Source: Candidatus Thorarchaeota archaeon
Lineage (GTDB): Archaea; Asgardarchaeota; Heimdallarchaeia; Hodarchaeales; Hodarchaeaceae
Reading direction: 5' to 3'
DNA length: 32,000 bases
Assembly (NCBI GenBank): GCA_048882505.1
Contig: JBHLRO010000025.1
Span: forward strand, 9,772-41,771
Every line of letters begins with the position of its first letter. Within the stretch, counting starts at the first letter, position 1. The translations under genes were made by a program, and so were the position numbers. Of this stretch, positions 4,356-22,334 are shown one piece after another. Under the pieces are notes generated by a model that was not told the DNA's origin, did not search any database, and saw only the letters and a list, made by a program, of their open reading frames with translations.

Positions 4356-4396
4356 CTTTACCTAAGAATATACGTGATGACGTCAAATGGTGAACT

Positions 4397-4953: not shown

Positions 4954-6078
4954 CTAATTATCGTTTTTAACAACCTGTCCCAATACCTCGCTTAATCTTA
5001 CCACATTCTCGACTCTTGCGGCATGACCCATTAGTCCAATCCGCCAAATTTTTCCCGCAAGGGGACCCAATCCTCCTCCAATCTCTATCTTTTGATTAAA
5101 CCGAAGATAATTACGGGTCTCAACATCATGAATGTTTTTTGGAATTTTTACCGCGTTCAGCATGGGTAGACGGTTTGGCTTTTCTACTAGAAATTCAAGG
5201 TTCAATTCCTCAAACCTTCTCACCAATTCGTTGTGAGCATCGAGGTGCCTCTTGAATACATTTTCAATGCCTTCATTGAATATGAGCTGTAAAGCTCTGT
5301 AAAATGCATAAAGCATATTCGATGGGGCCGTGTGATGATACACTCGCTTCTTCTCTCCGCTCCAATATTGGCTTATTAAATTTACATCAAAATAAAAGTT
5401 TGGGACTCTTTCTTTCCTATTAAGAACGGCAGAAACCGCTCTTTCGGAAAAAGATATTGGTGCTAATCCAGGTGGACATGAGAGGCATTTTTGAGAGCCA
5501 CTGTACACTGCATCCAACCCCCATTTGTCCACATTAACCTCCATACCGCCTAAACTTGTAACACAATCGACTAAGAACAGGGAATCTGTTTCGTTAACGG
5601 CTTTTGCTAAACCTTCGATCGGATTTTTGACCCCGGTGGATGTTTCTCCGTGAACAGCGGCAATTATTTTGTAATCTCGATTCGAAAGCTCTTCTATTAC
5701 TGTTTCTTCCAGAATTGGGGTTCCCCATTCAAATTCTAGGTAATTCACATTTGCTCTGAGTCTTGATGCTACTTCAATCATTCGCTTTCCAAAAATACCG
5801 TTTGCCAAAATCAGTACCGAATCTTTTGGTTCAATCAAATTAACAAAACAAGTCTCCATTCCAGAAGAGCCTGTACCTGACACAGGAAATGTCACAGTAT
5901 TGCGTGTCATGAACAATTTCCTTAGGAGGATTTGAATTTCATCCATTATTTCAATAAAGTAAGGATCTAGGTATCCTAGGGTTTTACAAGTCATAGCGCG
6001 GTATATTTCAGGTGGAACATGCGAAGGGCCCGGTCCCATTAATAATATGTCTTCTATTCCGTCTAAAAGATCTTTCAC
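4954..6078 (-). CDS. Class V PLP aminotransferase (alanine-glyoxylate/serine-pyruvate family)
   Basis: 'LLMGPGPS', 'VSGTGSSGME', 'VHGETSTGV', 'DCVTSLGG', PLP-Lys motif 'SGSQKCLSCPPG', 'YHHT', 'WRIGLMG'. Confidence 0.92.
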   Translation of the reverse strand: MKDLLDGIEDILLMGPGPSHVPPEIYRAMTCKTLGYLDPYFIEIMDEIQILLRKLFMTRNTVTFPVSGTGSSGMETCFVNLIEPKDSVLILANGIFGKRMIEVASRLRANVNYLEFEWGTPILEETVIEELSNRDYKIIAAVHGETSTGVKNPIEGLAKAVNETDSLFLVDCVTSLGGMEVNVDKWGLDAVYSGSQKCLSCPPGLAPISFSERAVSAVLNRKERVPNFYFDVNLISQYWSGEKKRVYHHTAPSNMLYAFYRALQLIFNEGIENVFKRHLDAHNELVRRFEELNLEFLVEKPNRLPMLNAVKIPKNIHDVETRNYLRFNQKIEIGGGLGPLAGKIWRIGLMGHAARVENVVRLSEVLGQVVKNDN

Positions 6079-6293
6079 ATCTATCCAACTCCAATATTGT
6101 GATCCTTAAGTGGAAGTTTCTATTTGTTGATTCTCGTACACCTAATTCAGATTGCATATATTCTGACAAGAGTGCATGTTCGGTTCAAATGGGTTAAGAC
6201 TTTTTTCAAAACTCAAATGTATCAAAGGACGATTCCTGAAGGTGGACAAAAGTTTTCAATCTTCAAACCCATAATATTAGTCGGGGTTTTAAA

Positions 6294-7082
6294 ATGGATT
6301 TAGAACTCACTGGAAAAGTAGCTTTAGTCGCTGCATCTTCTAAAGGACTAGGACGAGCTGTGGCCCTGGGACTTGCAGCAGAAGGAGCAGACCTAATAAT
6401 TTGCGCAAGAAATGAGGACATATTAAACCAAGTCGCCTCTGAAATTAAAGAACTGGGCCGTCAGGTTCTTGTCGTCCCAACAGATCTTACTGAGTACGCT
6501 CAAGTGAAACAACTTGTGGAAAAAGCTCTTGACCGGTTTGGTAGGATTGATATCCTCATAACCAACTGTGGTGGACCTCCATCGGGCACATTTCTGGATT
6601 TTGATGTTGAAGACTGGCAGAATGCTATAAATCTTAGCTTAATGAGCACGATCTTTCTCTGTAGGGAAATTATTCCTATTATGATTAAACAACAGGCAGG
6701 ATGTATAGTTATGAATACCTCAGTTACAGTAAAACAACCAAATACGAACTTAATTCTATCGAATGTTCCTAGAGCGGGGGTAACGGCTCTAGCCAAGACC
6801 CTCAGTAATGAATTTGGAAAGGATAATATTCGTGTAAACGTTGTATGCCCTGGATATACTCGAACTGAGAGGATTTTAAGTCTCGCAGAAGCGCTATCCA
6901 AGAACCGTGGGGTTCCTACTGACGATATTCTCAAGGAATGGGAACAACGGAACGCTCTAAAGCGTATCGCTGAACCGGAAGAATACGCTAACGTGGTCGT
7001 CTTTCTCGCTTCTAAAAGGGCCAGTCATCTGACTGGGGTTACTCTCCAAATTGACGGAGGCCTTGTTCAAGGATTGCTTTGA
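6294..7082 (+). CDS. Short-chain dehydrogenase/reductase, atypical BKR-like subfamily
   Basis: 'ALVAASSKGLGRAVA', 'DILITNCGGPP', 'LSNVPRAG' in place of YxxxK, 'PGYTRTER', 'TGVTLQIDGG'. Confidence 0.9.
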   Translation: MDLELTGKVALVAASSKGLGRAVALGLAAEGADLIICARNEDILNQVASEIKELGRQVLVVPTDLTEYAQVKQLVEKALDRFGRIDILITNCGGPPSGTFLDFDVEDWQNAINLSLMSTIFLCREIIPIMIKQQAGCIVMNTSVTVKQPNTNLILSNVPRAGVTALAKTLSNEFGKDNIRVNVVCPGYTRTERILSLAEALSKNRGVPTDDILKEWEQRNALKRIAEPEEYANVVVFLASKRASHLTGVTLQIDGGLVQGLL

Positions 7083-7565
7083 GCCCAGAGGAATGTAAAA
7101 TCATCCGGAGACAATGCATCCGATATAATCCGTTCTCCAACATCAGTTATATTAATCCACTTATCCAACTCATTTAGGTCTATCTTGTAAACCTAGTTTA
7201 CATTTGATTTCTTGCTGATAACCAGAAGAAATTAACCAGAATGGGCTATATCAAGCAAGATAAGATCAGAAGTTTCAAGAATTCTTTTTGGCTCATCTAG
7301 GTTCACAGACAACATCATCCCTTAATCAATGAGGTGCTAGAATGAGAATTCTTACGTTTTATGTCTCTCCATTTTAAATTGGGCCAATGAAATCCATTAT
7401 TATTAATTTCCTCTACCAAAAGGAACCCAAACCGTGACACGAAATCCGCTTAAAGGGCGTTAAAATGTATCTTCATTAAGTAAAGCACCTCAAACTTTAA
7501 AAATTAAAGTTATGGCGCTTAACCGTACACAATCAGTAAATTCTTTTCTAAAGGTTGGTTGTTTA

Positions 7566-8759
7566 ATGGTTAGCTTTTCTCTTTCCGAGGAACATAAATT
7601 ATTGCAAGAAAGTGTGAAAGATTTCGTGGAACGTGAGGTCGTTCCAAAGGTATCCGACTACGATAAACAACAAAAATCGTTATACCCAGAAATCCTCCCC
7701 AAAATGGGAGAGCTCGGTCTATTGGGAATCTGTATCCCAGAAGCATATGGAGGAGCAGGAATGGATTATTTAGCCCTTGCCTTGGCCTGTGAAGAGCTGG
7801 AACGGGTCGATACAGCTTTACGAGTCGTAATGTCTGTTCATGTGGCGTTAAACAGCTGTACGCTATACCAATGGGGTACTGAGGACCAAAAGAAAAAATA
7901 TTTGGTTCCGCAGGCCCAAGGTAAGAAATACGGGATTTATGGCCTTACTGAATCATGTTGTGGATCAGATCCAGCATCCATGCAAACTCATGCTGTAAAG
8001 GAAGGAGACGGATATGTTCTTAACGGATCTAAGAGCTGGATTTCATTGGTAGACGTCGCTGACAACTTCCTGATATTTGCACGTATGGGTCAAGAAAAAG
8101 GACACAAAGCCATTGCTGCCTTCATCGTAGAAAGAGATTTCGGTGGAGTAGAAACGAGAAGTTTTAAGGATAAACTGGGCATACGAACTGGTGACACCGG
8201 GGAAATTTTCCTCCAAGATGTCCCCGTCCCAGCTGAAAATCTCCTTGGTGAGGAGAGTGAAGGTTTTAAGATCGCAATGACCGCTCTGGATAATGGGCGT
8301 TTCACTGTGGCTGCAGGTGCCTGTGGAACAATCCGTGCCTGCTTAGAGGCCTCCACAGCTTATTGTCACGAACGAAAAGCATTCGGTCAAGAGATAGGTA
8401 GGTTCCAATTGATTCAGGAACACATCGCTGAGATGCAAGCTGGATACGATCAATCTCAACTTTTGGTGTATAAGGCTGCTTGGTTAAAGAATCAAGGAAT
8501 TCGTAATACTCGTGAAACTGCGATGGCAAAGTGGCAGGCTACCAACTATGCGTGTGACGCGGCTGACCGTGCGATACAGATCCATGGGGCAAATGGTTAT
8601 TCAAGTGACTTTTCTGTCGGGCGTTATTGGCGGAACGCGAGAGCAAATACCATCTTAGAAGGAACCAACGAAGTGCAGAAGTTGATCCAGGGATCTTACG
8701 TACTTGGCTATCGTAGAAAGGCCAAATTACGTCACGAAATGCCTGCATACCAACCATAA
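7566..8759 (+). CDS. Acyl-CoA dehydrogenase (possibly glutaryl-CoA/dicarboxylyl-CoA dehydrogenase of the lower benzoyl-CoA pathway)
   Basis: 'PEAYGGAG', 'GLTE...GSD', 'LNGSKSWIS', 'KLGIR', 'RKAFGQEIGRFQ', 'QIHGANGY', catalytic 'ILEGTNEV'. The start is placed at ATG 7566 (MVSFSLSEEH); the ORF track extends it to 7512. Substrate is an inference. Confidence 0.9.
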   Translation: MVSFSLSEEHKLLQESVKDFVEREVVPKVSDYDKQQKSLYPEILPKMGELGLLGICIPEAYGGAGMDYLALALACEELERVDTALRVVMSVHVALNSCTLYQWGTEDQKKKYLVPQAQGKKYGIYGLTESCCGSDPASMQTHAVKEGDGYVLNGSKSWISLVDVADNFLIFARMGQEKGHKAIAAFIVERDFGGVETRSFKDKLGIRTGDTGEIFLQDVPVPAENLLGEESEGFKIAMTALDNGRFTVAAGACGTIRACLEASTAYCHERKAFGQEIGRFQLIQEHIAEMQAGYDQSQLLVYKAAWLKNQGIRNTRETAMAKWQATNYACDAADRAIQIHGANGYSSDFSVGRYWRNARANTILEGTNEVQKLIQGSYVLGYRRKAKLRHEMPAYQP

Positions 8760-8874: not shown

Positions 8875-9834
8875 ATGGCCGAAAGCTCATTGGAGTGGGT
8901 ATTTCCAGTAATTGCTACCGTGATATGGCTTCTATTCTTTGGAAGCGTGGTTGAACAATATCTTCGAAAGCGAAAAACCCATCAGCTTGTCTGGGGGATC
9001 GCTCTATTGATGGTGGTCGTGGTAATGGGAGCAGAGGCCTTGAGCTATTTTCTAGGCGAATGGAATCCATGGCTTTATCGAATCTATTATGTTCTAGCAG
9101 CTTTTCAGGTAACTATCCTAGGTACTGGAGTTATCTACTTATTACGCAGTAGAGAATTAATTAATGAGCAGAACACCTTCGGAGGACTTCTCATATTCGG
9201 AGGGATCTGGCTAGTATTCGGGATCCCGTTCACCTTCTTTGTCTCCCCCGTTTTCTTTGTTATAATTCTATTAGCTTTTCTATATATAGGATTGGCTTTG
9301 ATCTCTTTCTTCACGGAATGGAATACCAGTGGAACCCAGTTTGCGCATCTCTTCGCGTTGACTAATGTAGTTGTTTTCGGTGTTATGATGGTGAGCGCTT
9401 GGAGTTCACCCGTGGACGTGGAAATCCTGAAATCCCTACTCGGACATCAAATAGGGGGAGCTGGTTGGGAAGAATCAACTATTGTTCGGAGTTTTTCTCC
9501 CCTTCTAACAGTACCCGGAGCCTTTGCACTTATAGGAGGAGCCCTCTTTTCATATTTTAAGTTGCAACGTTATCTTAAATACAAAACAGGCCATTATAAT
9601 CCCAAAACTGGAGTTTTCAACCTTTTCTTGGCGGGCGGATCGCTACTACTAGCAACAAGCGGGGTGTTATTACGATTTGGACTTGCAGGCACGCTACTGC
9701 TATATACTGTAAACACCCTAGCAGTAATCCTGATGTATTTTGGATTTCTTGAGTCAGATAGCATCTCTATGCACAAATTGATAGAGGTGTTAACGTTCCA
9801 GTGGCTCCGTAGTTCCGAAACTCAGATTTCCTGA
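8875..9834 (+). CDS. Uncharacterised polytopic membrane protein (about 8-10 TM)
   Basis: Repeated hydrophobic segments. GGTGA SD-like sequence before the ATG. No soluble domain. Confidence 0.75.
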   Translation: MAESSLEWVFPVIATVIWLLFFGSVVEQYLRKRKTHQLVWGIALLMVVVVMGAEALSYFLGEWNPWLYRIYYVLAAFQVTILGTGVIYLLRSRELINEQNTFGGLLIFGGIWLVFGIPFTFFVSPVFFVIILLAFLYIGLALISFFTEWNTSGTQFAHLFALTNVVVFGVMMVSAWSSPVDVEILKSLLGHQIGGAGWEESTIVRSFSPLLTVPGAFALIGGALFSYFKLQRYLKYKTGHYNPKTGVFNLFLAGGSLLLATSGVLLRFGLAGTLLLYTVNTLAVILMYFGFLESDSISMHKLIEVLTFQWLRSSETQIS

Positions 9835-9859
9835 TTGATTTAAAGAAAAGGAAAAGGGA

Positions 9860-11080
9860 TTACGCTGCGTTCAGGGCTTGGTCAAGGTCTGAAATGAGAT
9901 CATCCACATTCTCAATACCGACGGATAACCGAATAAGGCCATCTGTGATTCCAGCTCTTTCTCTTTGAGTTCGTGGAACCATAGAATGGGTCATTGTGGC
10001 TGGATGCTCCACCAAAGTTTCAACCCCTCCTAATGAAACTGCAAGAGAACAGACACGTAAAGATTCTACAACAGTTCGACCTTTTACGATCCCGCCTTTG
10101 ACTTCAAATGAAAGCATCCCCCCATAGCCTCCAACCATCTGTTGAGTTGCCAGTTCGTAGTCTGGATGGGATCTTAACCCAGGATAGAAAACCCGGGCAA
10201 TCTTTGGGTGGTGTTCCAGGAATTGGGCAATTCTCATTGCGTTTTCATTATGGCGCCTGATGCGAACCTCTAATGTCTTGATGCCACGGATTAATAAAAA
10301 CGCGTCAAACGGAGACAAATTTCCTCCGAGCAGTTTCAATGAATGATAACACCTCTCGAAAAGGGATTTTGAATTAACCGAAATTGTCCCTGCCAGAATA
10401 TCCGCATGTCCACCTAGATATTTGGTGGCCGAATGGACCACAATGTCCATTCCCAATTTAATCGGCTGCTGATTAACTGGTGAGGCAAAAGTGCTATCTA
10501 CTACTGAGATAGAACCTGTATCCCTTGCGATGCGAGCTACCTGTTCAAGATTGGTAAGTTTCATAGTTGGGTTCGCCGGGGTTTCTGCATAAATGACTCT
10601 CGTATTCTCCTGAATGGCATCTTTGTATTCTTTGGTATCTCTACCCTGAATGAATGTTGTTTCAAAACCCATTCGTTTCCCTATGGTAGTAAGAAATTCG
10701 TGAGTTCCTCCATAGAGCGAATAGGGGACGATAATATGATCACCAGCTTCAAGTAGCGAAACAAAGACAGTTGAGATCGCGGCCATACCTGAGGATGTGA
10801 TCAACGTTCCATAAGCATATTCCAGGGAATTCATGATTCGGGCTGCGATATCAGTTGTCGGATTTCCCCAGCGAGAATAAAACCAGCCTGATCCATCATA
10901 GATGCGTTCTCGTGAAAGGTGTGCTCCATGGTCAACGGAATCCAAGAGAAAAGTTGATGAAGCAATAATTGGGGGTGTGACCGAGTTGATTGGGCCTCTG
11001 ATAGGGTAACGTTTGACAACGGTTGTCCCCAAACCTTCATTAGACCTATCGTTTGTACTTGAACTATCTTTCATCACCAA
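9860..11080 (-). CDS. Cys/Met metabolism PLP enzyme (methionine gamma-lyase / cystathionine gamma-lyase/synthase family)
   Basis: 'YSRWGNPT', 'SSGMAAI', 'ETPANPT', 'VDSTFASP', PLP-Lys motif 'HSATKYLGGH', 'AVSLGGVETL', 'IRLSVGIE'. The start may be the ATG at 11074. Confidence 0.93.
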   Translation of the reverse strand: MVMKDSSSTNDRSNEGLGTTVVKRYPIRGPINSVTPPIIASSTFLLDSVDHGAHLSRERIYDGSGWFYSRWGNPTTDIAARIMNSLEYAYGTLITSSGMAAISTVFVSLLEAGDHIIVPYSLYGGTHEFLTTIGKRMGFETTFIQGRDTKEYKDAIQENTRVIYAETPANPTMKLTNLEQVARIARDTGSISVVDSTFASPVNQQPIKLGMDIVVHSATKYLGGHADILAGTISVNSKSLFERCYHSLKLLGGNLSPFDAFLLIRGIKTLEVRIRRHNENAMRIAQFLEHHPKIARVFYPGLRSHPDYELATQQMVGGYGGMLSFEVKGGIVKGRTVVESLRVCSLAVSLGGVETLVEHPATMTHSMVPRTQRERAGITDGLIRLSVGIENVDDLISDLDQALNAA

Positions 11081-11348: not shown

Positions 11349-12572
11349 TTACATTCGTAATCCGCCGTCTACTTGAACAACTGATCCAGTCATATAATCT
11401 GAGTCTGAGGATGCAAGGAAAACTGCAATTTTGGCGACATCATTTGGATATCCAATGCGCATTTGGGGAATCTGAGCGATTGTTTGTTCTTTGTAAACGC
11501 TGGGAGTGTTCGCTGTCATGGTTGTTTCAATATAGCCCGGCATAATGCAGTTAACATTAACTTTATAACGGGCTAACTCTCGTGCCGCCGTTTTTGATAG
11601 AGCAATAATGCCCCATTTAGATGCTGCATACGCAGCCTGTCCGACATTTCCGTATTTAGCGGCGGTGGATGTGAAATTGATAATTTTTCCTCCAAGCGGC
11701 CTTTTTGCCATGAAATGAGGTGAGATTGCTCGGATACAATTGAAAGTGCCCTTTAGATTTATGTCCACAACTGTATTCCACAATTCGTCGGTCATTTTAC
11801 TGATCAAGGCACTTCGACTGATGCCCGCATTATTTACAAGGATATCTATCTGGTTGAAAGTTTCCAAAGCTATCTTGATCAGTCGGGCAACGCTATCCAC
11901 ATCGGATACATCACATTGAACCGGAAGGCCTTGAGAGCTTAGGTTTTGAATCTCTTCGACCAGGGAATCAAGATCAGACTTAGTTCGTGCAGCGCAAACA
12001 ACTTTCGCTCCCTCCCGCGCATATTCTAATGCAATTTCGCGGCCTATTCCTTTTCCTGCACCAGTGATAATCGCAATTTTGCCATCTAACCGCTGACGCG
12101 ATTTTACTGAATCCTCATCTTTTTTTTTCTCTTTTTCTTCCGCTGCAGTTAGTATAATATCGCCACGTAACAGCTTGTAGACTACACGATCGCCTTCGAT
12201 GACTTCCGCTTCAACTTTCACCTTCTCTCCAATCTTGAGATTTTCAGAGTTAGAAGCTCCACTCCATGTCACTAGCCTACCCCCTTCTTTTAGTTTAACC
12301 ACGACGTTCGTATAAGGTGCAAAGCGTTCAAATCCAGCAGGTGGGACATATACCTCCGAAAAACTCAAAATTTCACCTTCTCCCGACAACTCGATATGTT
12401 CCATGAATTCGTTGGTTAGACATTTTGCTGTACAGTAAGCTCTTGGGGGGTAATAGAGAGTTCCACACTTTTTACACTTGGTTCCTTCCAGCACATTTTG
12501 CCGTAACTTACTGATGAATCTATCGCCAATCTTTGACTGAGAAACATAGTCACGATATCCAAAGGACTTCAT
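11349..12572 (-). CDS. Fusion: N-terminal DUF35 (Zn-ribbon + OB-fold, thiolase partner) and C-terminal FabG-like SDR
   Basis: aa ~1-135 carry 'CKKC...YPPRAYCTAKC' and the OB fold 'APY..VVVKL.EG'. A charged linker follows (EEKEKKKDED). The SDR from aa ~162 has 'TGAGKGIG', 'NNAG', Ser, 'YAASK' and 'VNCIMPG'. One continuous frame. Confidence 0.9.
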   Translation of the reverse strand: MKSFGYRDYVSQSKIGDRFISKLRQNVLEGTKCKKCGTLYYPPRAYCTAKCLTNEFMEHIELSGEGEILSFSEVYVPPAGFERFAPYTNVVVKLKEGGRLVTWSGASNSENLKIGEKVKVEAEVIEGDRVVYKLLRGDIILTAAEEKEKKKDEDSVKSRQRLDGKIAIITGAGKGIGREIALEYAREGAKVVCAARTKSDLDSLVEEIQNLSSQGLPVQCDVSDVDSVARLIKIALETFNQIDILVNNAGISRSALISKMTDELWNTVVDINLKGTFNCIRAISPHFMAKRPLGGKIINFTSTAAKYGNVGQAAYAASKWGIIALSKTAARELARYKVNVNCIMPGYIETTMTANTPSVYKEQTIAQIPQMRIGYPNDVAKIAVFLASSDSDYMTGSVVQVDGGLRM

Positions 12573-12581
12573 GTCTCATCA

Positions 12582-13733
12582 TCACCGGGAGAAGACGTGA
12601 ACAACACAGTATTGGCCATGCCCACCAACATTATGTGTTAGGCCGATCTCAGCCCCATCAACTTGGCTTTTTCCGGCCTCACCTCGTAATTGTTTAACCA
12701 CACCCACCACTTGGGATGCACCTGTTGCGCCTACAGGATGGCCTTTGGCCTTTAAGCCTCCGTCGACATTTATTGGGATTTTACCCCCGATATAAGTTTC
12801 TCCTTCTTCGATGAATCTTCCACCTTCTCCTCTTTCTGTAAATCCGAGATCCTCATACGCCATAATTTCAGCTATAGTAAAGCAGTCGTGGACGGCTGCA
12901 ACATCAATTTTTTTAGGCTCCATCTTGGATTGGAGATATGCCTGCCGGGACGCTTCCACCGCACTACTTAAATTGCTTAATTCGGGGCGAGTAAGCAAAC
13001 TAAAAGGAGCAGTGGCTGCTCCAAGTCCTTCGATCCAGACAGGCGTATCAGAGAGATGTTTTGCTTTCTCTTCATTGACAACTACCAATGCAGCAGCCCC
13101 GTCAGCATTGGCGCAACAGTCAAACAGACGCAGGGGCGATGCAATCATTCGAGATTCCAGCGCCTTTTCAATAGTAATTTCCTTCTGGAACATCGCCATC
13201 TTATTCATAGCTCCATAGTGGTGATTTTTTACCGCGACAGCCGCCATCTGTTCTGAAGTAGTACCGAATTTAGACATGTGTGCATTTGCGTACATGGCGT
13301 AATAGTTGGCAAAAGTAGTACCAAAAGGAGCCTCCCACTGAACATCACCAGTTCTTCCCATTATTTTAAGAATCTCTGAAGTGGGATTTTCCAGCATTTT
13401 CTGAACACCTAGAACCAAAACGATGTCATGCATGTTTGCTTTGATGAGAGCATATGCAGACCTTAATGCTGCAGCAGAGCTGCTACAAGCGGCTTCCGTG
13501 AGCCATACAGGCTGGGGATTTAATCCTAAATACTCAGTAATGGGTCCTGCGATACTTCTTTGGGTCATGTAGACCGGACTTGCTCCTATGATGGTTGCGT
13601 CAATGTCTTTTTGCGTAATATTTGCATCCAAAAGGGCTTCAGCAAAAGGTTCGAAAGCCAACTCTTGAACTGAAACATCATCACGTCGGCCAAACCGACT
13701 ATTTCCAATTCCAATTATTCCAACTTTGGTCAA
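12582..13733 (-). CDS. SCP2/archaeal-type thiolase (acetyl-CoA C-acyltransferase)
   Basis: Catalytic Cys 'EAACSSS', 'VHDCFT', 'GGLKAKGHPVGATG', 'HNVGG'. Confidence 0.93.
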   Translation of the reverse strand: MTKVGIIGIGNSRFGRRDDVSVQELAFEPFAEALLDANITQKDIDATIIGASPVYMTQRSIAGPITEYLGLNPQPVWLTEAACSSSAAALRSAYALIKANMHDIVLVLGVQKMLENPTSEILKIMGRTGDVQWEAPFGTTFANYYAMYANAHMSKFGTTSEQMAAVAVKNHHYGAMNKMAMFQKEITIEKALESRMIASPLRLFDCCANADGAAALVVVNEEKAKHLSDTPVWIEGLGAATAPFSLLTRPELSNLSSAVEASRQAYLQSKMEPKKIDVAAVHDCFTIAEIMAYEDLGFTERGEGGRFIEEGETYIGGKIPINVDGGLKAKGHPVGATGASQVVGVVKQLRGEAGKSQVDGAEIGLTHNVGGHGQYCVVHVFSR

Positions 13734-13762: not shown

Positions 13763-14809
13763 TCATTTTTGGCATAGCACAATTGTTCGAACTCCTTCAC
13801 CTCTTCTCATGACATCAAACGCTTCATTGATTTCCGAAAGAGGGTACTTTCCAGTAACAAGTGGTTTAACCACAATTCTTTTATTTTGAACCAATTTAAT
13901 AATGCGAGGATAGTCAACCGTGCGACATCCCAATGATCCCATGATTTCCATTTCACGAAACATGACTCTTCCTATATCAAAGCCATCCCATCTTTTATGT
14001 GAATACCCTACTGCAACCAATCGTCCTCCAGTCCTTAAGCTGTTGAAGGCCTGTTTCATGGTCACAGGGTTGCCAATGCACTCAAAAGCAACATCTGCAC
14101 CTCCACCAGTAATCTTGCGAATTGCTCCAACGATTGCACGGTCATCCAGATCGGCCGCTGATAAAATCTCAACTGCCCCAAGTTGTTTTGCGATTTCCAG
14201 TTTTTTTGGAATGATGTCCACTGCAATTGCCAATCCGCCAGCCACCTTAATGTTTTGAACCGTGTTTAGGCCTATTCCCCCACATCCGATGACAACAGCC
14301 CAGTCTCCTGGGCGGATCTGTCCACGATTCTTTACCGCATGATATGGAGTGGAAACAGCATCTGATATGATGCAACCCTCTTCTAATGGGATTTCGCCAG
14401 GTAAGGCGAAAATATCTTTGGCTGGGACCATAATCTTTTCAGCAAATCCCCCATCCACATTGGAACCAAAAAACGTTTGATTCGTACAAATGTTCTCACG
14501 ACCAGTCCTACAGTAAAAGCAATTCCCACACGAAATAACCGCAGGAACAAGCACGTGATCTCCTTGTTTAAAAGCGGTGACATCTTCGCTAGTTTCACGA
14601 ACAATTCCTGACATTTCATGTCCCAAAACCAACGGAGGGGATTTACCTGTCGGAACGCCATGATCTAGAAATCCAATATCAGTGTGACAAACCCCACAAG
14701 CCGTTATGTCAATGATTGCTTTTCCTGAAGAGTCACCGAGGTCCGGCGATGGATAGCTTCCATTCAATTTCAAAGGAGCCTTTACCTGTTCAAATATAGC
14801 TGCACGCAT
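13763..14809 (-). CDS. Zn-dependent alcohol dehydrogenase, probably 6-hydroxycyclohex-1-ene-1-carbonyl-CoA dehydrogenase (Had/BamQ-like)
   Basis: 'GVCHTD', 'PLVLGHEMSG', structural Zn 'CGNCFYC...C', 'DAVSTPY', 'GCGGIG'. The 'G-V-x-T...P-L-x-LGHE' and 'PAVISCG' segments resemble recalled Had sequences. Start placed at ATG 14809 (track: 14830). The MDR family call is firm; Had specificity is moderate. Confidence 0.7.
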   Translation of the reverse strand: MRAAIFEQVKAPLKLNGSYPSPDLGDSSGKAIIDITACGVCHTDIGFLDHGVPTGKSPPLVLGHEMSGIVRETSEDVTAFKQGDHVLVPAVISCGNCFYCRTGRENICTNQTFFGSNVDGGFAEKIMVPAKDIFALPGEIPLEEGCIISDAVSTPYHAVKNRGQIRPGDWAVVIGCGGIGLNTVQNIKVAGGLAIAVDIIPKKLEIAKQLGAVEILSAADLDDRAIVGAIRKITGGGADVAFECIGNPVTMKQAFNSLRTGGRLVAVGYSHKRWDGFDIGRVMFREMEIMGSLGCRTVDYPRIIKLVQNKRIVVKPLVTGKYPLSEINEAFDVMRRGEGVRTIVLCQK

Positions 14810-14931
14810 CGGAACCACTTGTTGAAACAAGAAAATCCTGCTGATTTTTAATTGTTCCTGCTAATCTGGTTACATAATAAGTACAGGATTTTACTGAGAT
14901 GGTTTACTCCCGTTTACTCTTCATGCGGCGT

Positions 14932-15603
14932 TTAGAGAAAGACCCCAATTTCGGATAACGATTTTTTCTCTATATTTGGAACCATCGCATCTTCATGGGG
15001 ATATCCTACTGGCATAAGGACATATGGTTTTTCATTGGGAGGTCGATTGAGCAGTGTTTTTAGAACTTTTATGGGTGCCGGAGTATGAGTGACCGTGACC
15101 AGGCCTACATTATGGATCGCCATAATAAGCATCCCTATAGCAATTCCGACGCTTTCCTTGACATAGTAATGCGGGAGTTTTTGCATATTTTCACCAAATG
15201 CATAATCTTGGCGAAAAACTACTATTAGGTAAGGAGCCTCTGTTAAATAAGGTTTTTCCCAATTAGTGGCTAGAGGGGCTAGGGCTTCTCGTTGTGCATC
15301 CGAAATACGGGACTCGTAGAATTCCTTTTCTACTGCTTCTACCGCTACTCGAATTCGGGATTTTATTGAAAGATCGTTAACTACGACGAAGGTCCATGGC
15401 TGTTTATTGGCCCCCGAGGGAGCAGTACCCGCGGTCTTGACAATAGTTTCGATTATTTTTCGGGGTACTGGCTTGGTTGAAAATTTCCTAACAGTTCTCC
15501 GCGTTCGAGCCCATTCGTAGAATTCTGTGGAGCGAAAATCCATTTCATCGGAAGAATAAGTTTTGGGTCTGTATGGGACGAATTCTTTGCTCATTGTAAC
15601 CAA
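14932..15603 (-). CDS. Nitroreductase-superfamily flavoprotein, iodotyrosine deiodinase (IYD)-like
   Basis: 'RRTVRKFS', 'TAPSGANKQPWTFVVV', lid 'EKEFY...TNWEKPYL', 'HYYVKESVGIA', 'VTVTHTP', 'PVGYP'. The start is probably the ATG at 15594. Confidence 0.8.
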   Translation of the reverse strand: MVTMSKEFVPYRPKTYSSDEMDFRSTEFYEWARTRRTVRKFSTKPVPRKIIETIVKTAGTAPSGANKQPWTFVVVNDLSIKSRIRVAVEAVEKEFYESRISDAQREALAPLATNWEKPYLTEAPYLIVVFRQDYAFGENMQKLPHYYVKESVGIAIGMLIMAIHNVGLVTVTHTPAPIKVLKTLLNRPPNEKPYVLMPVGYPHEDAMVPNIEKKSLSEIGVFL

Positions 15604-15829
15604 CTACTTCGTGGTGCCCTTTGGCCAAGAAAATGGTTTTTGGACACCGCTGATAATACCGATAGTACACACAACTGATAATATCTTTATAATCCTTGAG
15701 ATGCTCGCAGCAATGAAATAAACTTTTTAGATCAATGGAATACACGTATACGGGACCTTATCATTCATTAATTTCCAAAGCACATTTCAATTAACATTAA
15801 ATATTACTACCTCAAAATGGCAATTACAT

Positions 15830-16561
15830 ATGTTGTTGGACACGCTGAGCTTCAGAATCGTAAAAGGGGTCGTTTGGACCAAATTTGATGAAGAAATGGG
15901 CCCTGTTCCTGTGGCCTGGGTACCTGATACCCTTTCTGAAGAAATTTTGTTTAGCGTCTCTCTCCGTGGAATGTCTGTCTTCTCAAGTCGTCCTTCCAAC
16001 ATATCGTATGCAAAAATGATTGCTACACTTCCTTTTCCAGAATATGAGTTCTTTTCTATCTCTACAGTCCTTTATGAAGTCTCAGAGTCTCTCAGGGGCG
16101 GATTTGATATAAATCTGGTGACGGTTTTAATCCCCCAACTGATAGTGGAAAATGCATGGCTGGATATACGTCAAATTCAAGGGATTTTTAGGAAGTATTT
16201 TGCTCCCTGGGATGGCAGACCAGTTAACGATAAAGAAAAAATCATCACAGGGGTTGCTTTGGCCATTGATGACATTTTGTGTCGTAAATTCGAGATGATC
16301 GAAGAGGGAGAAAAGGTTAGAGATCAGCTAAACAATTATCTTGAGTCCTACCTTGTAACCTCCCGTGAAGAAAACGATCAACAGCTTATCAAGACACGAG
16401 TAAAAACATTGATTCAATCGTTGGACCGAGTACTAATAGCGGGGGATCATGAACGAATTCAAGAGGCCCTAGACCAACTGAACTATATCTTGAATGAGGG
16501 ATTTGAGGATGAACTAATCATTGCTTACCAGGGTGCCTTTAGCCACTTTTTACAAATATAA
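15830..16561 (+). CDS. Hypothetical protein with N-terminal uDENN/longin-like fold and C-terminal helical region
   Basis: N-terminal beta strand then 'W.KFDEEMGP.P', followed by an alternating alpha/beta pattern typical of uDENN/longin modules. The fold is inferred. Confidence 0.6.
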   Translation: MLLDTLSFRIVKGVVWTKFDEEMGPVPVAWVPDTLSEEILFSVSLRGMSVFSSRPSNISYAKMIATLPFPEYEFFSISTVLYEVSESLRGGFDINLVTVLIPQLIVENAWLDIRQIQGIFRKYFAPWDGRPVNDKEKIITGVALAIDDILCRKFEMIEEGEKVRDQLNNYLESYLVTSREENDQQLIKTRVKTLIQSLDRVLIAGDHERIQEALDQLNYILNEGFEDELIIAYQGAFSHFLQI

Positions 16562-16595: not shown

Positions 16596-17366
16596 TTAAC
16601 GATTCTGCCAAACTGGAGATCTTTTTTCAACAAAGGCCTGTAACCCCTCATTAGCATCCTTGGTTTCCATTAGCTCATGCAGGTATAAGTGTTCGATCCG
16701 ACTCAGAATGTGCATGAATTCAACATGAGTTCCTATTTGGAGCGCTTTCTTCGCATATCGTAAAACGACCGCACTTAAGGACCTAAATCTCTGTAAATAG
16801 TTTTCAAAATCCTGATCGAAGGTGGTAGAGGGAAATACGTGATTTATCAATCCATATTTTAGCGCTTCTTGCGCATTCATTGATTCACCATGCATCACAA
16901 GTTCGTAGGCCATTTTCAGTGGTACCAGGTGCGGTAATAGAACCGTTGCCAGTGGGGGAAAGACACCCACTTTGATTTCTGGCTGTCCGAACTTGGCATT
17001 TTCAGAAGCAATCACAAAATCACAAAATAAGGCAACCTCACACCCCCCTCCCAGAGCTGCCCCCTTAACACTAGCTATCGTGGGACAGGGCAAAGAATAA
17101 AATTGTCTGAAGATTTTGTGGAATTCTTCGAGCATGGTCTTGGCTGTATCTCCCATATGCTCTCCTACATCTACTCCTGCGGAGAATGTCCGCCCTGTGT
17201 GTCCAACGACCAGGGCCTTCAACGAATTGTCCTTGGAAAATTCCTCAATCGCCCGATTGATCTCAACCATCATCGCAATGTTAAGAATGTTAAGTTTTCC
17301 ACTGTTTAATATGATTTTGCCAACGTTATCATTTTTAATTACCTGAATCTGTTCGTAGTTCATCAC
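16596..17366 (-). CDS. dch: Crotonase-family hydratase, probably cyclohexa-1,5-dienecarbonyl-CoA hydratase
   Basis: 'NILNIAMM', 'FSAGVDVGEHM', 'ALGGGCE', 'KFGQPEIKVGVFPP', 'LSAVVLRYA', 'LYLHELMETKDANEGLQAFVEKRSPVWQNR'. The EHM motif and C-terminus match recalled Dch/BamR sequences. Confidence 0.8.
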   Translation of the reverse strand: MMNYEQIQVIKNDNVGKIILNSGKLNILNIAMMVEINRAIEEFSKDNSLKALVVGHTGRTFSAGVDVGEHMGDTAKTMLEEFHKIFRQFYSLPCPTIASVKGAALGGGCEVALFCDFVIASENAKFGQPEIKVGVFPPLATVLLPHLVPLKMAYELVMHGESMNAQEALKYGLINHVFPSTTFDQDFENYLQRFRSLSAVVLRYAKKALQIGTHVEFMHILSRIEHLYLHELMETKDANEGLQAFVEKRSPVWQNR

Positions 17367-17722: not shown

Positions 17723-18979
17723 TTATTCAATCAAAGGAAAATGGCACGCTACCCAATGATTTGAACGCTGCTCTATGAGTTCTGGTTCATTTTCAATGCA
17801 TTTTGAAGGATCCACGATAGGACAACGAGGATGGAATCTGCAACCTGACGGAGGATTAATTGCATCTGGTACCTCCCCATGCGGCAAATCATATTTCTTT
17901 TCTCCAGGAATAGGTGTCGGAACTGCATCTATTAGGGCTCTCGTATACGGGTGGAGCGGATTTCTGAATATGGCCTCGACCTCTCCCATTTCAACGAGTT
18001 TTCCAACATACATTACCCCTATTCGGTCACCAAAATGCCTTGCTGTGGCCAGATCATGGGTTATAAAGAGAATTGAAAGATTATGTGCTAATTGGAGTGA
18101 TTTCAATGAGTCTAGAATACCTGCGCGTAAACTGACATCCAACATACTTGTAGGTTCATCAGCGATTATTAGCTCTGGATTCAATATTAATGCTCTCGCT
18201 ATGGAGGCTCGCTGCAGTTCACCGCCGCTAACTTCATGGGGAAATTTCGTATAATATTGTTGGGAAGGAGTTAAACCGATTTCTTCAAACACCTCCAGGA
18301 TGCCTGAATCAGCAATTTTTCTTCTACGAAACCAAGAATGATAGAAGTAGCTTCCCAAGGCGACAGTGAAAAGGGACACTCCAAAAAGAGCACTAAGGGT
18401 AACTATTGTCGAATCCTGAATAAAAAACACAAGCGTGAGAGCCAAAAGTGAAATTATACTACTTAAAATAAGAAAAAACTCCGAGTATACGGAGTTACGA
18501 TATCTCTTTCTGACCTCGGTGTCCGTAATCCTATTGTGAATTAATAAGGGATGAAGAACTGCATCCCCCAAACGCATACGTGGATTTAATGAGGAAAAAG
18601 GATTTTGAAAGACGACTTGAGATTTTATATTTCCTTTACGGGGTATTAACTCATTGTGTGTAATTTCATTGTTCTTCCACTTGAATTTTCCTGTTGTGGG
18701 AGTCTCTAAACCAACCAATATATTAGCAGTAGTCGTCTTTCCACATCCAGACTCACCAACCAAGCAGAAAATCTCTCCTTTATTGATTGAAAACGTGATA
18801 TCATCAACAGCTTTCACATATGTCTCTTGTCGAGTGAACAGTCTATCTAGAGTTCCATGCTCAACTGGAAAGTATTTTCTAAGGTTAGTTACTTCTATTA
18901 AAGTCTCCTTTTCTTTCTTATCAATAAGACCTGACATTGTCACTCCCTCACTATCTAAAATGGGATTCATAGGATTCAT
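17723..18979 (-). CDS. dppF: Oligopeptide/dipeptide ABC ATPase (OppF/DppF) with an internal two-TM insertion
   Basis: Walker A 'GESGCGKT', Q-loop 'VFQNP', signature 'VSGGELQR', Walker B 'IIADEP', H-loop 'ITHDL', C-terminal 'GCRFHPRC...C...ACH'. Hydrophobic insert at aa ~165-216. Confidence 0.92.
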   Translation of the reverse strand: MNPMNPILDSEGVTMSGLIDKKEKETLIEVTNLRKYFPVEHGTLDRLFTRQETYVKAVDDITFSINKGEIFCLVGESGCGKTTTANILVGLETPTTGKFKWKNNEITHNELIPRKGNIKSQVVFQNPFSSLNPRMRLGDAVLHPLLIHNRITDTEVRKRYRNSVYSEFFLILSSIISLLALTLVFFIQDSTIVTLSALFGVSLFTVALGSYFYHSWFRRRKIADSGILEVFEEIGLTPSQQYYTKFPHEVSGGELQRASIARALILNPELIIADEPTSMLDVSLRAGILDSLKSLQLAHNLSILFITHDLATARHFGDRIGVMYVGKLVEMGEVEAIFRNPLHPYTRALIDAVPTPIPGEKKYDLPHGEVPDAINPPSGCRFHPRCPIVDPSKCIENEPELIEQRSNHWVACHFPLIE

Positions 18980-19949
18980 GAAACATCAGACATTTGGCAA
19001 TATGTTGACTCTTTGACCCTATCATTATTAGCTCTGGGCTTTCTTTTCTGCAGACATCTTTTACAAAAGTGCACCGATCGGCAAAGGAACATCCTTTCGG
19101 GGGATTTCTTAGATCGGGAGGATGCCCGGGAATAAAACTAAGCTGCTTCTTTTCTTTCTCTTTGACATTGGGAATCGCCTTGATCAAGGCCTGTGTGTAA
19201 GGATGAGCTGGGCTTTCAAAGATAGTAAAGGTATCGCCTACCTCAACTATTTGACCGGCATACATTATGGCAACTCGATTTGTGATTTCCGCTACTACCC
19301 CCAAATCATGTGTAATGTAAATAACTGTCAATTTGTACTCTCTAATGATATCTTTTAGTAGCTGAAGGAGTCTTGCCTGAACCAAAACATCAAGTGCTGT
19401 GGTAGGTTCATCAGCAATAATCATTTTTGGATTCAAAATCAAGGTTAACGCTATTACAATTCGTTGTTGCATTCCGCCCGAAAATTGAAAGGGATTGTCT
19501 TTCAAGCGTGTGGGAGGGATTTCCAAACGGTGTAACAAAGATTTCACTTCTTCCCATTTTTCCTCAGTCCACAGCTCGTGTACTTTCAGAGTATCGATAA
19601 AATGATCTGAAACCTTCTGAAGAGGATTCAGGGCATTCTGAGAAGCCTGAAACACCATAGATATATCAGAACCACGAAGTTTTTCCATTTCCTCCTCGGA
19701 TAGCTGTACCAGATCTTTCTTATTATATAGAATTCTCCCTGAACGAATAACCCCGCCCTGAAGTAGGCCAAGGATTGAATAGCCCAGTGTGCTTTTTCCA
19801 CATCCAGATTCTCCCACCAGGCCTAAAACTTCTCCTTTGTCAATGGTGAGAGAGACATTATCTACCGCTCTCACATTTCCGTCAAGTGTGGGATATTCAA
19901 CGACCAGGTTCTGGATTTCCAATAACGGAGGTTTATCGCTATTTCGCAT
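18951..19949 (-). CDS. dppD: Oligopeptide/dipeptide ABC ATPase (OppD/DppD)
   Basis: 'GESGCGKS', 'FSGGMQQR', 'IIADEPTTALD', 'ITHDL', C-terminal Cys cluster 'GCSFADRC...C...C'. Start placed at ATG 19949 (track: 19997). Confidence 0.93.
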   Translation of the reverse strand: MRNSDKPPLLEIQNLVVEYPTLDGNVRAVDNVSLTIDKGEVLGLVGESGCGKSTLGYSILGLLQGGVIRSGRILYNKKDLVQLSEEEMEKLRGSDISMVFQASQNALNPLQKVSDHFIDTLKVHELWTEEKWEEVKSLLHRLEIPPTRLKDNPFQFSGGMQQRIVIALTLILNPKMIIADEPTTALDVLVQARLLQLLKDIIREYKLTVIYITHDLGVVAEITNRVAIMYAGQIVEVGDTFTIFESPAHPYTQALIKAIPNVKEKEKKQLSFIPGHPPDLRNPPKGCSFADRCTFVKDVCRKESPELIMIGSKSQHIAKCLMFHESYESHFR

Positions 19950-22320: not shown

Positions 22321-22334
22321 TATATAAAATTTGG
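22321..22334 (-). promoter_or_regulatory. Candidate BRE/TATA for an internal dppB promoter
   Basis: The minus strand reads CCAAATTTTATATA, between the SBP terminator and dppB. Confidence 0.3.

Follow-up and report, generated by a model that had tools for sequence, protein, structure and literature searches.

Genomic context of a thiolase and a DUF35::SDR fusion in an Asgard archaeon favours a role in the lower benzoyl-CoA pathway over fatty-acid synthesis

What does a thiolase do when its likely DUF35 scaffold is covalently joined to an SDR? The question is raised by a locus in the window (the whole stretch of 32,000 nucleotides that was analysed) from an Asgard archaeon. The original prediction read the pair as a channelling thiolase-reductase complex that might build acyl chains, with 3-hydroxypimeloyl-CoA oxidation and thiolysis in the lower benzoyl-CoA pathway as the competing reading. 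The pair is made up of the following features:

11349-12572, minus strand: DUF35::SDR fusion, a single ORF of 407 aa with an ATG start
12162..12572, minus strand: DUF35 domain of the fusion (residues 1-137), with an N-terminal helix, a four-cysteine zinc ribbon and an OB fold (Pfam zf-ChsH2, OB_ChsH2_C)
12093..12161, minus strand: charged, poorly conserved linker of the fusion (about residues 138-160, ~23 residues)
11349..12092, minus strand: FabG-like classical SDR domain (residues 161-407 and the stop codon; Pfam adh_short, adh_short_C2)
12573..12581, minus strand: 9-nt gap from the stop codon of the thiolase to the ATG of the fusion
12582..13733, minus strand: SCP2/archaeal-type thiolase, 383 aa, TTG start (Pfam Thiolase_N, Thiolase_C_1)

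The arrangement is as originally described: the thiolase TGA is followed by nine nucleotides (tgatgagac) and the fusion ATG, and DUF35 is joined to the SDR through a charged linker. Pfam places zf-ChsH2 at residues 22-51 of the fusion (38.5 bits; cut-off 23.2) and OB_ChsH2_C at residues 61-121 (53.1 bits; cut-off 27.1). The top PDB match of the DUF35 part is 6esq_E (E 5e-16), the DUF35 of a thiolase/HMG-CoA synthase complex (PDB 6ESQ), and its OB fold can be aligned to 6esq_E, 3irb_A, and 6ok1_B; DUF35 is, as originally described, an established thiolase scaffold. The ribbon cysteines C33, C36, C47, and C51 are invariant in 35 aligned fusions (alignment A1) and in 11 DUF35 relatives. In the SDR part (adh_short at residues 165-356, E 9e-62), the catalytic set was rightly called intact, given that the tetrad N272, S302, Y315, and K319 is invariant in the same 35 fusions, as are residues T170, G171, G175, and G177 of the glycine motif. 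The domain passes the NCBIfam FabG subfamily model PRK12826.1-2 (228 bits vs cut-off 222) and does not pass the NCBIfam FabG equivalog models (275.9 vs 296 and 266.3 vs 297.75). Its cofactor motifs are TGAGKGIG (residues 170-177) and AART (194-197), with K174 and R196 conserved at ≥90% in the 35 fusions and A195/R196 in the position of D/F in the NADH-dependent 4nbu. Judged by its residues, the fused SDR thus carries an NADP(H)-type fingerprint (basic residues and no acid at the end of beta-2).

A stop or frameshift in the linker would have pointed to two genes wrongly joined by assembly or gene calling. We consider such an artefact vanishingly improbable: no point in its support was found, and it is refuted as far as assemblies can show. 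The same architecture is common to 50 database proteins from independent assemblies (231-425 aa, most 385-425), and it is present in the closed 4.9-Mb genome CP070695. Among 35 homologues, the length of the linker is constant to within two or three residues, even though its mean column identity is only 0.33 versus 0.6-0.94 elsewhere in the fusion. Contigs of runs X1 (the probable source), X3, and X4 bridge the linker with substitutions only, and the thiolase/fusion junction is spanned by contigs of all four runs; the bridging contigs show neither insertions nor deletions at either place.

The thiolase, whose N-terminus agrees with that of its homologues, has the CxS nucleophile (C83), HDCF (282-285), and GHP (331-333) in invariant columns (alignment A3). 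It scores 489 bits on NCBIfam PRK06064 (cut-off 420), its top PDB matches are 7yvy_A (256 bits) and 6esq_A (246 bits), and it does not pass the BbsB model NF053628 (198.8 bits vs cut-off 750). The fusion adjoins a thiolase in every fusion locus that was fetched (L001-L003, L007, L011, L013-L016). For the anticipated complex with the thiolase, structure prediction gives a DUF35-thiolase interface with an ipSAE of 0.86 (best control: 0.01). Of 80 solved complexes, 58 attain this mark, as do 2 of 110 mismatched pairs, and the score may reflect the model's memory of solved DUF35-thiolase complexes. Three runs agree in ≥95% of contacts, and the partner pLDDT is ≥88. The DUF35 domain is therefore predicted to dock on the thiolase.

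Which 3-oxoacyl-CoA this complex would handle is a matter of genomic context, for which three neighbouring genes are needed:

13763..14830, minus strand: Had-like, Zn-dependent MDR dehydrogenase, on the strand of the thiolase and 29 nt upstream of it (Pfam ADH_N, ADH_zinc_N)
16596..17366, minus strand: crotonase-family hydratase, Dch-like, member of the conserved cluster (Pfam ECH_1)
7512..8759, plus strand: acyl-CoA dehydrogenase (ACAD), glutaryl-CoA-dehydrogenase-like, member of the conserved cluster (Pfam Acyl-CoA_dh domains)

The top NCBIfam models of these genes are dearomat_had (223 bits, cut-off 338), dienoyl-CoA hydratase (186 bits, cut-off 292), and GlutCoADH_Des (356 bits, cut-off 470), respectively; all three scores lie below the curated cut-offs, which weighs against a ring-cleavage role. 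No other gene in the genome comes near the MDR as a Had candidate (runner-up: 97 bits). The MDR matches Had (7quy, 173 bits) and ADH (1rjw, 176 bits) in the PDB, and keeps the Zn-ADH motifs CGVCHTD and GHE, the four-cysteine structural site, and an NAD-type Asp after beta-2. As a candidate NADPH enoyl reductase it is countered by the Zn-ADH ligands and this Asp. In sister genomes, the MDR also lies next to the thiolase (about 80% identity), with the Dch-like hydratase directly upstream of it.

The domain-architecture search that had been proposed gave the 50 proteins mentioned above and, among 301 Asgard genomes, a narrow taxonomic spread: 14 of the 21 genomes of the same genus and G025 encode the fusion (15 in total), and it was not found in most of the Asgard lineages searched. 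The fusion is not Asgard-wide and is confined to essentially one genus. All 15 fusion genomes encode Oah/BamA (counted if it passes the curated cut-off or is truncated by a contig end), which otherwise occurs only in G241 (70% complete), a co-occurrence that rests on essentially two lineages and not on independent samples. The Oah of the window's own genome scores 570 bits on TIGR03200 (cut-off 464). The fusion is next to Oah or a few kb away in G238, G292, G102, G115, and G181, and the order in sister genomes is Dch-like hydratase, Had-like dehydrogenase, thiolase, DUF35::SDR, (glutaryl-CoA-dehydrogenase-like gene), Oah. G238 carries hydratase, MDR, thiolase, fusion, Oah, and a classical thiolase in an unbroken row of one orientation; in G292, G181, and G102, this set also includes, between fusion and Oah, an ACAD that is 75-77% identical to the product of the gene at 7512..8759.

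This co-occurrence (15/15) and the adjacency in sister genomes make the lower benzoyl-CoA reading the better of the two first put forward, and the context favours 3-hydroxypimeloyl-CoA oxidation and thiolysis over fatty-acid synthesis. We regard it as probable that the thiolase and DUF35::SDR form a tethered two-enzyme complex of the Dch/Had/Oah branch of anaerobic benzoyl-CoA or alicyclic-CoA degradation, and we infer its physical binding, channelling, substrate, cofactor, and direction as follows. The DUF35 domain would dock on the adjacent SCP2-type thiolase, as free DUF35 proteins do, and the flexible ~23-residue linker would hold the C-terminal SDR by the thiolase active site. Oah would open the ring to 3-hydroxypimeloyl-CoA, the SDR domain would oxidize this product to 3-oxopimeloyl-CoA, probably with NADP+, and the docked thiolase would at once cleave the latter to glutaryl-CoA and acetyl-CoA, with glutaryl-CoA passing to the nearby glutaryl-CoA-dehydrogenase-like enzyme. 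Favourable thiolysis would pull the unfavourable dehydrogenation, and the coupling could also work in reverse. Counting for this role are the motifs, the predicted interface, co-occurrence and adjacency with Oah, the genome's own Oah together with the MDR as its sole good Had candidate, the unfused triads and the precedent of the Bbs enzymes (both below), and the extra SDR: because three classical Hbd/FadB-type 3-hydroxyacyl-CoA dehydrogenases are already encoded elsewhere in the genome, the fused SDR appears to be an additional, dedicated enzyme.

The unfused counterparts were found in the loci with the closest thiolases in other species (79 loci examined among L018-L097). DUF35 is directly downstream of the thiolase in 69 of them and a separate SDR directly upstream in 37; the fusion is absent from all 79, and the triads consist of separate genes in the order SDR-thiolase-DUF35. 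Oah is located within 6 kb in 12 loci, 11 of which have the triad. As in the fusion locus, DUF35 comes right after the thiolase in these Oah-side triads, the SDR is in the operon, and the partners are Oah, a Dch-like ECH, and an MDR. Because such unfused triads exist, the Rosetta-stone logic of the original prediction is valid for a DUF35-tethered dehydrogenase/thiolase complex. Triad thiolases from Thermoplasmata, Desulfobacterales, and other anaerobes are 52-68% identical to the window's thiolase; those of Thermoplasmata, several of them next to Oah, reach 62-68%. The closest relatives of the catabolic island outside the genus are in Thermoplasmatota, a similarity that may reflect horizontal acquisition. 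To our knowledge, unfused triads beside Oah/BamA have not been characterised biochemically. In the SDR tree, unfused triad SDRs make up a main clade, and the fused SDR lies outside it in a clade of its own; the fusion thus recruited a different FabG-like SDR, and the pathway assignment consequently rests on context, not on SDR orthology.

An ACP-independent condensation-reduction module, in which NADPH reduction pulls the Claisen condensation toward fatty-acid or other acyl chains, was weighed against the same evidence and is very unlikely. The Sulfolobus thiolase/DUF35/ketoacyl-CoA reductase complex, mentioned in the original prediction, does exist (bioRxiv 10.1101/2024.07.05.601840), and its reductase ACR is a strictly NADPH-specific FabG-like SDR; the fused SDR shares the K174/R196 fingerprint and groups with generic FabG-like proteins instead of the catabolic triad SDRs. 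The claim that this fingerprint favours reduction holds in so far as the fingerprint is present. However, Oah clusters of Thermoplasmata and Desulfobacterales also encode unfused SDRs with this fingerprint, and therefore the fingerprint is no argument for synthesis. Such a fingerprint is nonetheless unusual for a catabolic 3-hydroxyacyl-CoA dehydrogenase, a point against the ring-cleavage role. Also in favour of synthesis, a search of the 94.6%-complete genome gave no PP-binding (acyl carrier protein) domain, and two MaoC genes are present, but these are on other contigs; the fusion cluster has no MaoC gene, and its hydratase is a crotonase. Against synthesis, moreover, the fusion occurs only where Oah occurs among the 301 genomes (often adjacent to it) and was not found in most Asgard lineages searched, the MDR is unlike NADPH enoyl reductases in its zinc ligands and Asp, and the surroundings of the fusion are catabolic (ACAD, ETF, peptide transporter, AOR). 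Neither acyl-chain synthesis nor the lipid-transition angle of eukaryogenesis is supported.

Within the same catabolic island, the pair could serve another step: the classical thiolase would cleave 3-oxopimeloyl-CoA, and the fused pair would take another 3-hydroxyacyl/3-oxoacyl-CoA couple, the candidates being the pathway's final 3-hydroxybutyryl-CoA/acetoacetyl-CoA couple and an intermediate that is alicyclic or 2-substituted. A classical thiolase does follow Oah by 3-17 nt in five genomes (the window's own, G238, G292, G102, and G181), and it could itself be the 3-oxopimeloyl-CoA thiolase, which speaks against the role proposed here for the pair. It scores on 3-oxoadipyl-CoA thiolase (PcaF) models at 112-113 bits, well below the cut-offs, with acetyl-CoA C-acetyltransferase and BktB models scoring equal to or above PcaF. 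SCP2-type thiolases with DUF35 also use bulky or branched substrates elsewhere (BbsAB, 7pxp; Ltp2, 6ok1). On the other side, in most Oah-linked loci of Thermoplasmata and Desulfobacterales, no thiolase except the one with DUF35 lies within 6 kb of Oah (8 of the 12 Oah loci, and 7 of the 11 with Oah and the triad, have no classical thiolase), and the three Hbd/FadB-type dehydrogenases are already available for C4 steps. We consider the other-step assignment unlikely.

The direction of the ring-cleavage complex also has to be weighed. It could run mainly in reverse, as a fermentative electron sink in which glutaryl-CoA and acetyl-CoA are condensed to 3-oxopimeloyl-CoA, reduced to 3-hydroxypimeloyl-CoA, and converted to cyclohexane-type products; ring formation of this kind reportedly serves as an electron sink in crotonate-grown Syntrophus aciditrophicus. 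The NADP(H)-type SDR, the 60-fold gain in condensation efficiency of the Sulfolobus DUF35 complex, and surroundings that suggest amino-acid/peptide fermentation are consistent with this direction, as is the failure to find a clear-cut ring reductase. The gene content is equally compatible with degradation and direction is not readable from sequence; we regard a mainly ring-forming role as very unlikely. The ring reductase is a weak point of the degradation reading: the BcrC-like gene at the end of the window scores 246 bits (cut-off 421), a BcrB-like fragment lies at the contig end, and these genes rarely recur in the genus. Among 21 other genomes of the genus, only G280 has a BcrC-like gene of similar score (248 bits), and a search of four sister genomes gave no close homologues of the BcrC/B-like genes. 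Other genomes carry an HGD-D gene (126-139 bits) 6-28 kb from the cluster, and the window's AOR is nearer to Pyrococcus AOR than to BamB. There is only a slim chance that the tethered complex condenses and reduces at least part of the time, making ACP-independent acyl chains with a fused Sulfolobus-type core taken from the ring-cleavage pathway or used by both.

If the complex acts in ring cleavage, the triads that are widespread beside bamA/oah in strict anaerobes degrading aromatic compounds are predicted to form a channelling complex that converts 3-hydroxypimeloyl-CoA to glutaryl-CoA, steps so far assigned only by generic similarity. The fusion is independent genetic evidence for an SDR as a physical partner of DUF35-thiolase units, for which the known second enzymes are HMG-CoA synthase, the Sulfolobus ketoacyl-CoA reductase, and the MaoC hydratases of steroid degraders. 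It is also a warning against reading thiolase/DUF35 pairs in Asgard genomes as a sign of fatty-acid synthesis.

Among known systems, AabC/AabD of Aromatoleum sp. CIB and PimE/PimB correspond in their described reactions to the proposed 3-hydroxypimeloyl-CoA dehydrogenase and 3-oxopimeloyl-CoA thiolase steps; they were assigned by similarity to ordinary dicarboxylate beta-oxidation enzymes (PMC9795900) and, unlike the window's pair, have no reported DUF35. In the S. acidocaldarius 'archaeal fatty acid synthase' (KT/DUF35/ACR/MaoC-HCD, Saci_1121/1120/1104/1085), the thiolase/DUF35 subcomplex physically binds ACR, and the DUF35 complex raises condensation efficiency 60-fold (bioRxiv 10.1101/2024.07.05.601840). 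Judged by sequence features only, the window's pair resembles it in combining thiolase/DUF35 with an NADPH-type SDR for the same two chemical steps, and differs in that a single polypeptide contains both scaffold and reductase, in a ring-cleavage context with a neighbouring MDR most like ADH/Had, not an NADPH MDR enoyl-CoA reductase. The Methanothermococcus thermolithotrophicus complex (PDB 6ESQ, 6ET9) likewise uses DUF35 to connect a thiolase with the enzyme acting on its 3-oxoacyl-CoA, but the scaffold is a free 130-aa protein, and the partner is HMG-CoA synthase in mevalonate synthesis. In steroid side-chain degradation, DUF35 alone mediates binding of the thiolase-fold partner in ChsH1-ChsH2-Ltp2 and Shy-Sal (PDB 6OK1; PMC11321319) and is, as here, joined covalently to the enzyme that acts one step earlier; there, a MaoC hydratase precedes DUF35 in the polypeptide and a retro-aldolase is the partner, whereas here DUF35 precedes an SDR and the partner retains thiolase catalytic motifs. 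BbsCD and BbsAB of anaerobic toluene degradation (PDB 7PCS, 7PXP; both among our PDB matches, as 7pcs_B and 7pxp) are separate proteins, BbsCD is NAD-dependent, and the window's thiolase is not a Bbs orthologue, but here too an SDR acts before an SCP2-type thiolase that has a DUF35 subunit, and the two degrade a dicarboxylic CoA ester of an aromatic pathway.

The original prediction placed a thiolase upstream of a DUF35 domain that is covalently joined to an SDR through a charged linker, and Pfam domains and the sequence itself bore out this arrangement, with 9 nt between the thiolase stop codon and the start of the fusion:

12582–13733, minus strand: thiolase of the SCP2/archaeal type, 383 aa, with Pfam Thiolase_N and Thiolase_C_1
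11349–12572, minus strand: DUF35::SDR fusion, 407 aa, in three parts (DUF35 unit, charged stretch, SDR)

The thiolase exceeds the cut-off of NCBIfam PRK06064 (489 bits), and its nearest solved structures are 7yvy_A and 6esq_A (thiolase of the Methanothermococcus thiolase/HMG-CoA synthase complex). Across an alignment of its relatives, the CxS cysteine (C83), HDCF (282–285), and GHP (331–333) are invariant, which we take to be the fingerprint of an active SCP2-type thiolase. The DUF35 unit of the fusion is complete (zf-ChsH2, residues 22–51; OB_ChsH2_C, 61–121), as is the classical SDR (adh_short, 165–356; E = 9e-62), and the charged linker between them spans ~23 residues. The top structural match of the DUF35 part is 6esq_E, the thiolase/HMGCS scaffold (E = 5e-16), followed by SSO2064, ChsH2, BbsA, and PhlB; the SDR part is FabG-like, with 4nbu as its top single-domain structure (215 bits). 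The SDR carries the anticipated intact catalytic set and NADP(H)-type fingerprint: across an alignment of 35 fusions, none of the four ribbon cysteines or the N-S-Y-K residues varies, and K174 (TGAGKGIG) and R196 (AART) reach at least 90% conservation. Only the linker is poorly conserved in this alignment (mean identity 0.33), with its length maintained.

The fusion is genuine. The linker is bridged by contigs of two further samples, and the thiolase/fusion junction by contigs of four runs, in both cases with substitutions only. A homologue search that used words from the DUF35 part alone and admitted only proteins of 223–713 aa returned 50 proteins that share both parts, i.e., zinc ribbon/OB fold and SDR, and are 51–90% identical over the DUF35 part. 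One fusion homologue lies in the closed 4.9-Mb genome CP070695. The organism names that NCBI gives for the 50 homologues (Thor-, Odin-, Hermod-, and Promethearchaeota) hint at a wide distribution. An Asgard-wide occurrence was rejected, because a survey of 301 representative Asgard genomes placed full-length fusions (ORFs of 405–431 aa, 61–92% identical) in 14 of the 21 genomes that belong to the window's genus and in one genome of another family (G025). The genus includes CP070695 (labelled Heimdallarchaeota), and a named relative is Candidatus Hodarchaeum mangrovi. The remaining matches in the survey are free DUF35 proteins (≤50% identical), and four such examples that we fetched are plain thiolase–DUF35 pairs without an adjoining SDR. 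A library of 1.84 billion representatives (50% identity) contains one full-length fusion representative, all other top matches being plain or otherwise-fused SDRs; P0072, P0120, and other longer SDR matches were rejected as DUF35 fusions on account of their Metallophos, lipoyl, or acyltransferase domains. Searches of the literature turned up no account of this particular DUF35::SDR fusion, the nearest being a general remark in a 2010 structure paper on DUF35 homologues in fusion with NAD(P)-binding Rossmann domains (PMC2954200).

In the sister genomes, the thiolase always precedes the fusion and is itself preceded by a Zn-dependent MDR and a crotonase (ECH). The corresponding region of the window, with the nearby acyl-CoA dehydrogenase-like gene (ACAD), is laid out as follows:

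7512–8759, plus strand: ACAD, top model non-decarboxylating glutaryl-CoA dehydrogenase (356 bits, below the cut-off of 470)
8875–11080, between ACAD and fusion: 319-aa ORF without family matches, plus a PLP enzyme resembling methionine-gamma-lyase (434 bits, below the cut-off of 550)
13763–14830, minus strand: MDR, top NCBIfam model Had (223 bits, below the cut-off of 338)
14932–16561, between MDR and ECH: nitroreductase-family gene (BluB/IYD-like, 66 bits), plus a 243-aa ORF that matches no family
16596–17366, minus strand: ECH, top NCBIfam model Dch (186 bits, below the cut-off of 292)
17723–24067: Opp/Dpp peptide ABC transporter, beside the next two genes
24499–26952, minus strand: tungsten-type aldehyde:ferredoxin oxidoreductase (AOR; 375 bits to 1aor) and 4Fe-4S ferredoxin
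30322–32000, plus strand: BcrC-like gene (408 aa), then a BcrB-like fragment running off the contig end

Because MDR, crotonase, and ACAD all fall under their cut-offs, we searched for the hallmark of the lower benzoyl-CoA pathway, the ring-opening hydrolase Oah/BamA. The window's own genome encodes it on another contig, C4, next to a second type of thiolase:

C4, 15276–17605 (neighbourhood L017): Oah/BamA (570 bits; cut-off 464) and, 2 nt on, a classical thiolase

Among the 301 Asgard genomes, Oah is present in 15/15 of those that bear the fusion: 14 exceed the cut-off and the fifteenth (G062) is interrupted by a contig end (452 bits). Only one genome, G241 (70% complete), has Oah without the fusion, and neither was detected in the other six genomes surveyed from the genus. 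In G238, the genes follow one another on a single strand in the order ECH–MDR–thiolase–DUF35::SDR–Oah–classical thiolase, and G292, G181, and G102 carry a glutaryl-CoA-dehydrogenase-like gene between fusion and Oah; all four share the Oah–classical thiolase pair. Unlike in sister genomes, where MDR and ECH are adjacent or one gene apart, the catabolic island is dispersed in the window's own genome.

Other genes around these loci were also compared. AOR and the peptide transporter form a peptide or amino-acid fermentation context; the reading of AOR with ferredoxin as BamBC, the class II reductase, was rejected, the AOR of Pyrococcus being the closer match (375 bits vs 273 for BamB). The BcrC-like gene (246 bits on benz_CoA_red_C; cut-off 421) found a comparably scoring counterpart within the genus only in G280 (248 bits), and other genomes of the genus have a different HGD-D family gene (126–139 bits) 6–28 kb from the fusion cluster. 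The BcrC-like gene was rejected as an obligate cluster partner, given that G256, G238, G292, and G208 yielded no close homologue. About 7 kb from Oah on C4, an ApbA-like 2-oxoacid reductase, an acyl-CoA dehydratase activase, and a HadB/BcrB-like subunit (4335–8189, L017) look like a 2-hydroxyacyl-CoA dehydratase-type set. The genome has a second thiolase/DUF35 pair on contig C5 (6957–8895; 2458–4396 of neighbourhood L098), its DUF35 protein (222 aa) being extended at the N-terminus by ~70 residues. This pair has no adjoining HMG-CoA synthase. Pfam HMG_CoA_synt_C had no match in the genome, but this negative carries little weight, since the model detected only two of four archaeal controls (Haloferax volcanii, Methanosarcina acetivorans).

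To find relatives outside the genus, one genome per prokaryotic species was scanned with the thiolase alignment, yielding 80 loci, 79 of them with a callable thiolase. The nearest thiolases (62–68% identity) belong to Thermoplasmata and Methanomassiliicoccales, and the next-nearest to Desulfobacterales, Desulfatiglandales, Syntrophales, Dehalococcoidia, Bathyarchaeia, and others. DUF35 lies directly downstream of the thiolase in 69/79 loci and a separate SDR (~249 aa) directly upstream in 37/79; a DUF35–SDR fusion was found in none of the 79. Oah (≥55% identical) occurs within 6 kb in 12/79 loci, 11 of which have the complete SDR–thiolase–DUF35 triad, and a protein search showed that the closest free DUF35 proteins likewise sit in such operons. 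Many anaerobes thus keep as three genes what is here two, with DUF35 and SDR joined, so the Rosetta-stone logic of the original prediction holds. One metagenome contig (L006, 723–8879) reads TetR–SDR–thiolase–DUF35–ECH–(ApbA::HGD-D fusion)–BcrAD activase–MDR, i.e., the enzyme set of the fusion cluster plus an unusual ApbA::HGD-D fusion, in surroundings of TetR and multihaem cytochromes.

Based on a maximum-likelihood tree of 99 SDRs, 33 of the 37 triad SDRs, with all 11 Oah-linked ones among them, form one clade (support 100/100), whereas the fused SDR domains make up a separate clade (100/100) on the tree's other side, among generic FabG-like proteins. By its sequence, the fused SDR is not an orthologue of the usual triad SDR; the separate clades indicate that this lineage swapped the separate SDR for a different one fused behind DUF35, and such independent recruitment argues for a strong functional need of an SDR at that place. 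Three ordinary Hbd/FadB-type dehydrogenases are encoded elsewhere in the genome, marking the SDR of the fusion as a dedicated extra. The NADP(H)-type fingerprint, which the original prediction took to favour reduction, does not point to biosynthesis: the Oah-linked unfused SDRs (loci L018–L097) show the same type, the positions that follow beta-2 being basic (INRR, INRK, TRKH) and free of acidic residues. Going by these signatures, NADP+ may be the cofactor of 3-hydroxypimeloyl-CoA dehydrogenase in strict anaerobes.

The proposed thiolase complex was modelled with fusion residues 1–140, giving an ipSAE of 0.86 (best of three controls: 0.01), with at least 95% contact agreement between runs and partner pLDDT of at least 88. 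In a benchmark, this mark was reached by 58/80 solved complexes and 2/110 mismatched pairs. Several DUF35–thiolase complexes are already solved, so the score may stem from the predictor having learnt them, and the predicted interface shows likeness to such complexes rather than binding. AlphaFold2 on the full-length fusion (35-row alignment) gave a mean pLDDT of 56, unusable for fold searches or domain packing.

Most likely, a DUF35-clamped thiolase and a tethered SDR act in the steps from 3-hydroxypimeloyl-CoA to glutaryl-CoA. With a tetrameric SDR and a dimeric thiolase, the expected complex would be a 4:4 assembly of about 350 kDa. The DUF35 domain would clamp the thiolase and the linker would keep the SDR close by; the SDR would oxidise 3-hydroxypimeloyl-CoA, the product of Oah, and the thiolase would at once convert 3-oxopimeloyl-CoA to glutaryl-CoA and acetyl-CoA. 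Thermodynamically, an uphill dehydrogenation is pulled by thiolysis, and we infer that this applies to the DUF35::SDR/thiolase pair. The main uncertainty within the catabolic reading is whether the classical thiolase takes the C7 substrate, since it directly follows Oah in this genus; against this, most Oah-linked loci found in other phyla have the DUF35-associated thiolase as their sole thiolase nearby. Oxidation of 3-hydroxypimeloyl-CoA plus thiolysis, which the original prediction had listed as the competing interpretation, is favoured by Oah in all 15 fusion genomes and its adjacency in G238. The same co-occurrence and ring-cleavage gene context make acyl-chain synthesis with a bearing on the lipid transition in eukaryogenesis unlikely, even though a Sulfolobus assembly of thiolase, DUF35, and ketoacyl-CoA reductase, to which the original prediction pointed, does exist: KT Saci_1121 and DUF35 Saci_1120 bind both a MaoC dehydratase and Saci_1104, a FabG-like reductase specific for NADPH, and an MDR enoyl-CoA reductase closes the fatty-acid synthesis cycle (Schmerling et al., bioRxiv 10.1101/2024.07.05.601840). 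That study does not mention a DUF35–SDR fusion. Overall, the observation and its Rosetta-stone logic stood, and the interpretation was borne out in part, its biosynthetic side being unlikely.

The benzoyl-CoA pathway was predicted earlier for Asgard MAGs (Hermodarchaeota), with the lower steps assigned only generically (PMC8163825). The fusion is set in a catabolic ring-cleavage island that has its closest relatives outside the genus in Thermoplasmatota, and a transfer of the Oah cluster between Thermoplasmatota and this genus is suspected. As in the MaoC::DUF35 proteins ChsH2 and Shy, whose DUF35 domain mediates binding to thiolase-fold partners, DUF35 is covalently fused to another enzyme, theirs being MaoC and this one an SDR; the fusion adds a lineage-specific variation to the known theme of DUF35–thiolase scaffolding.
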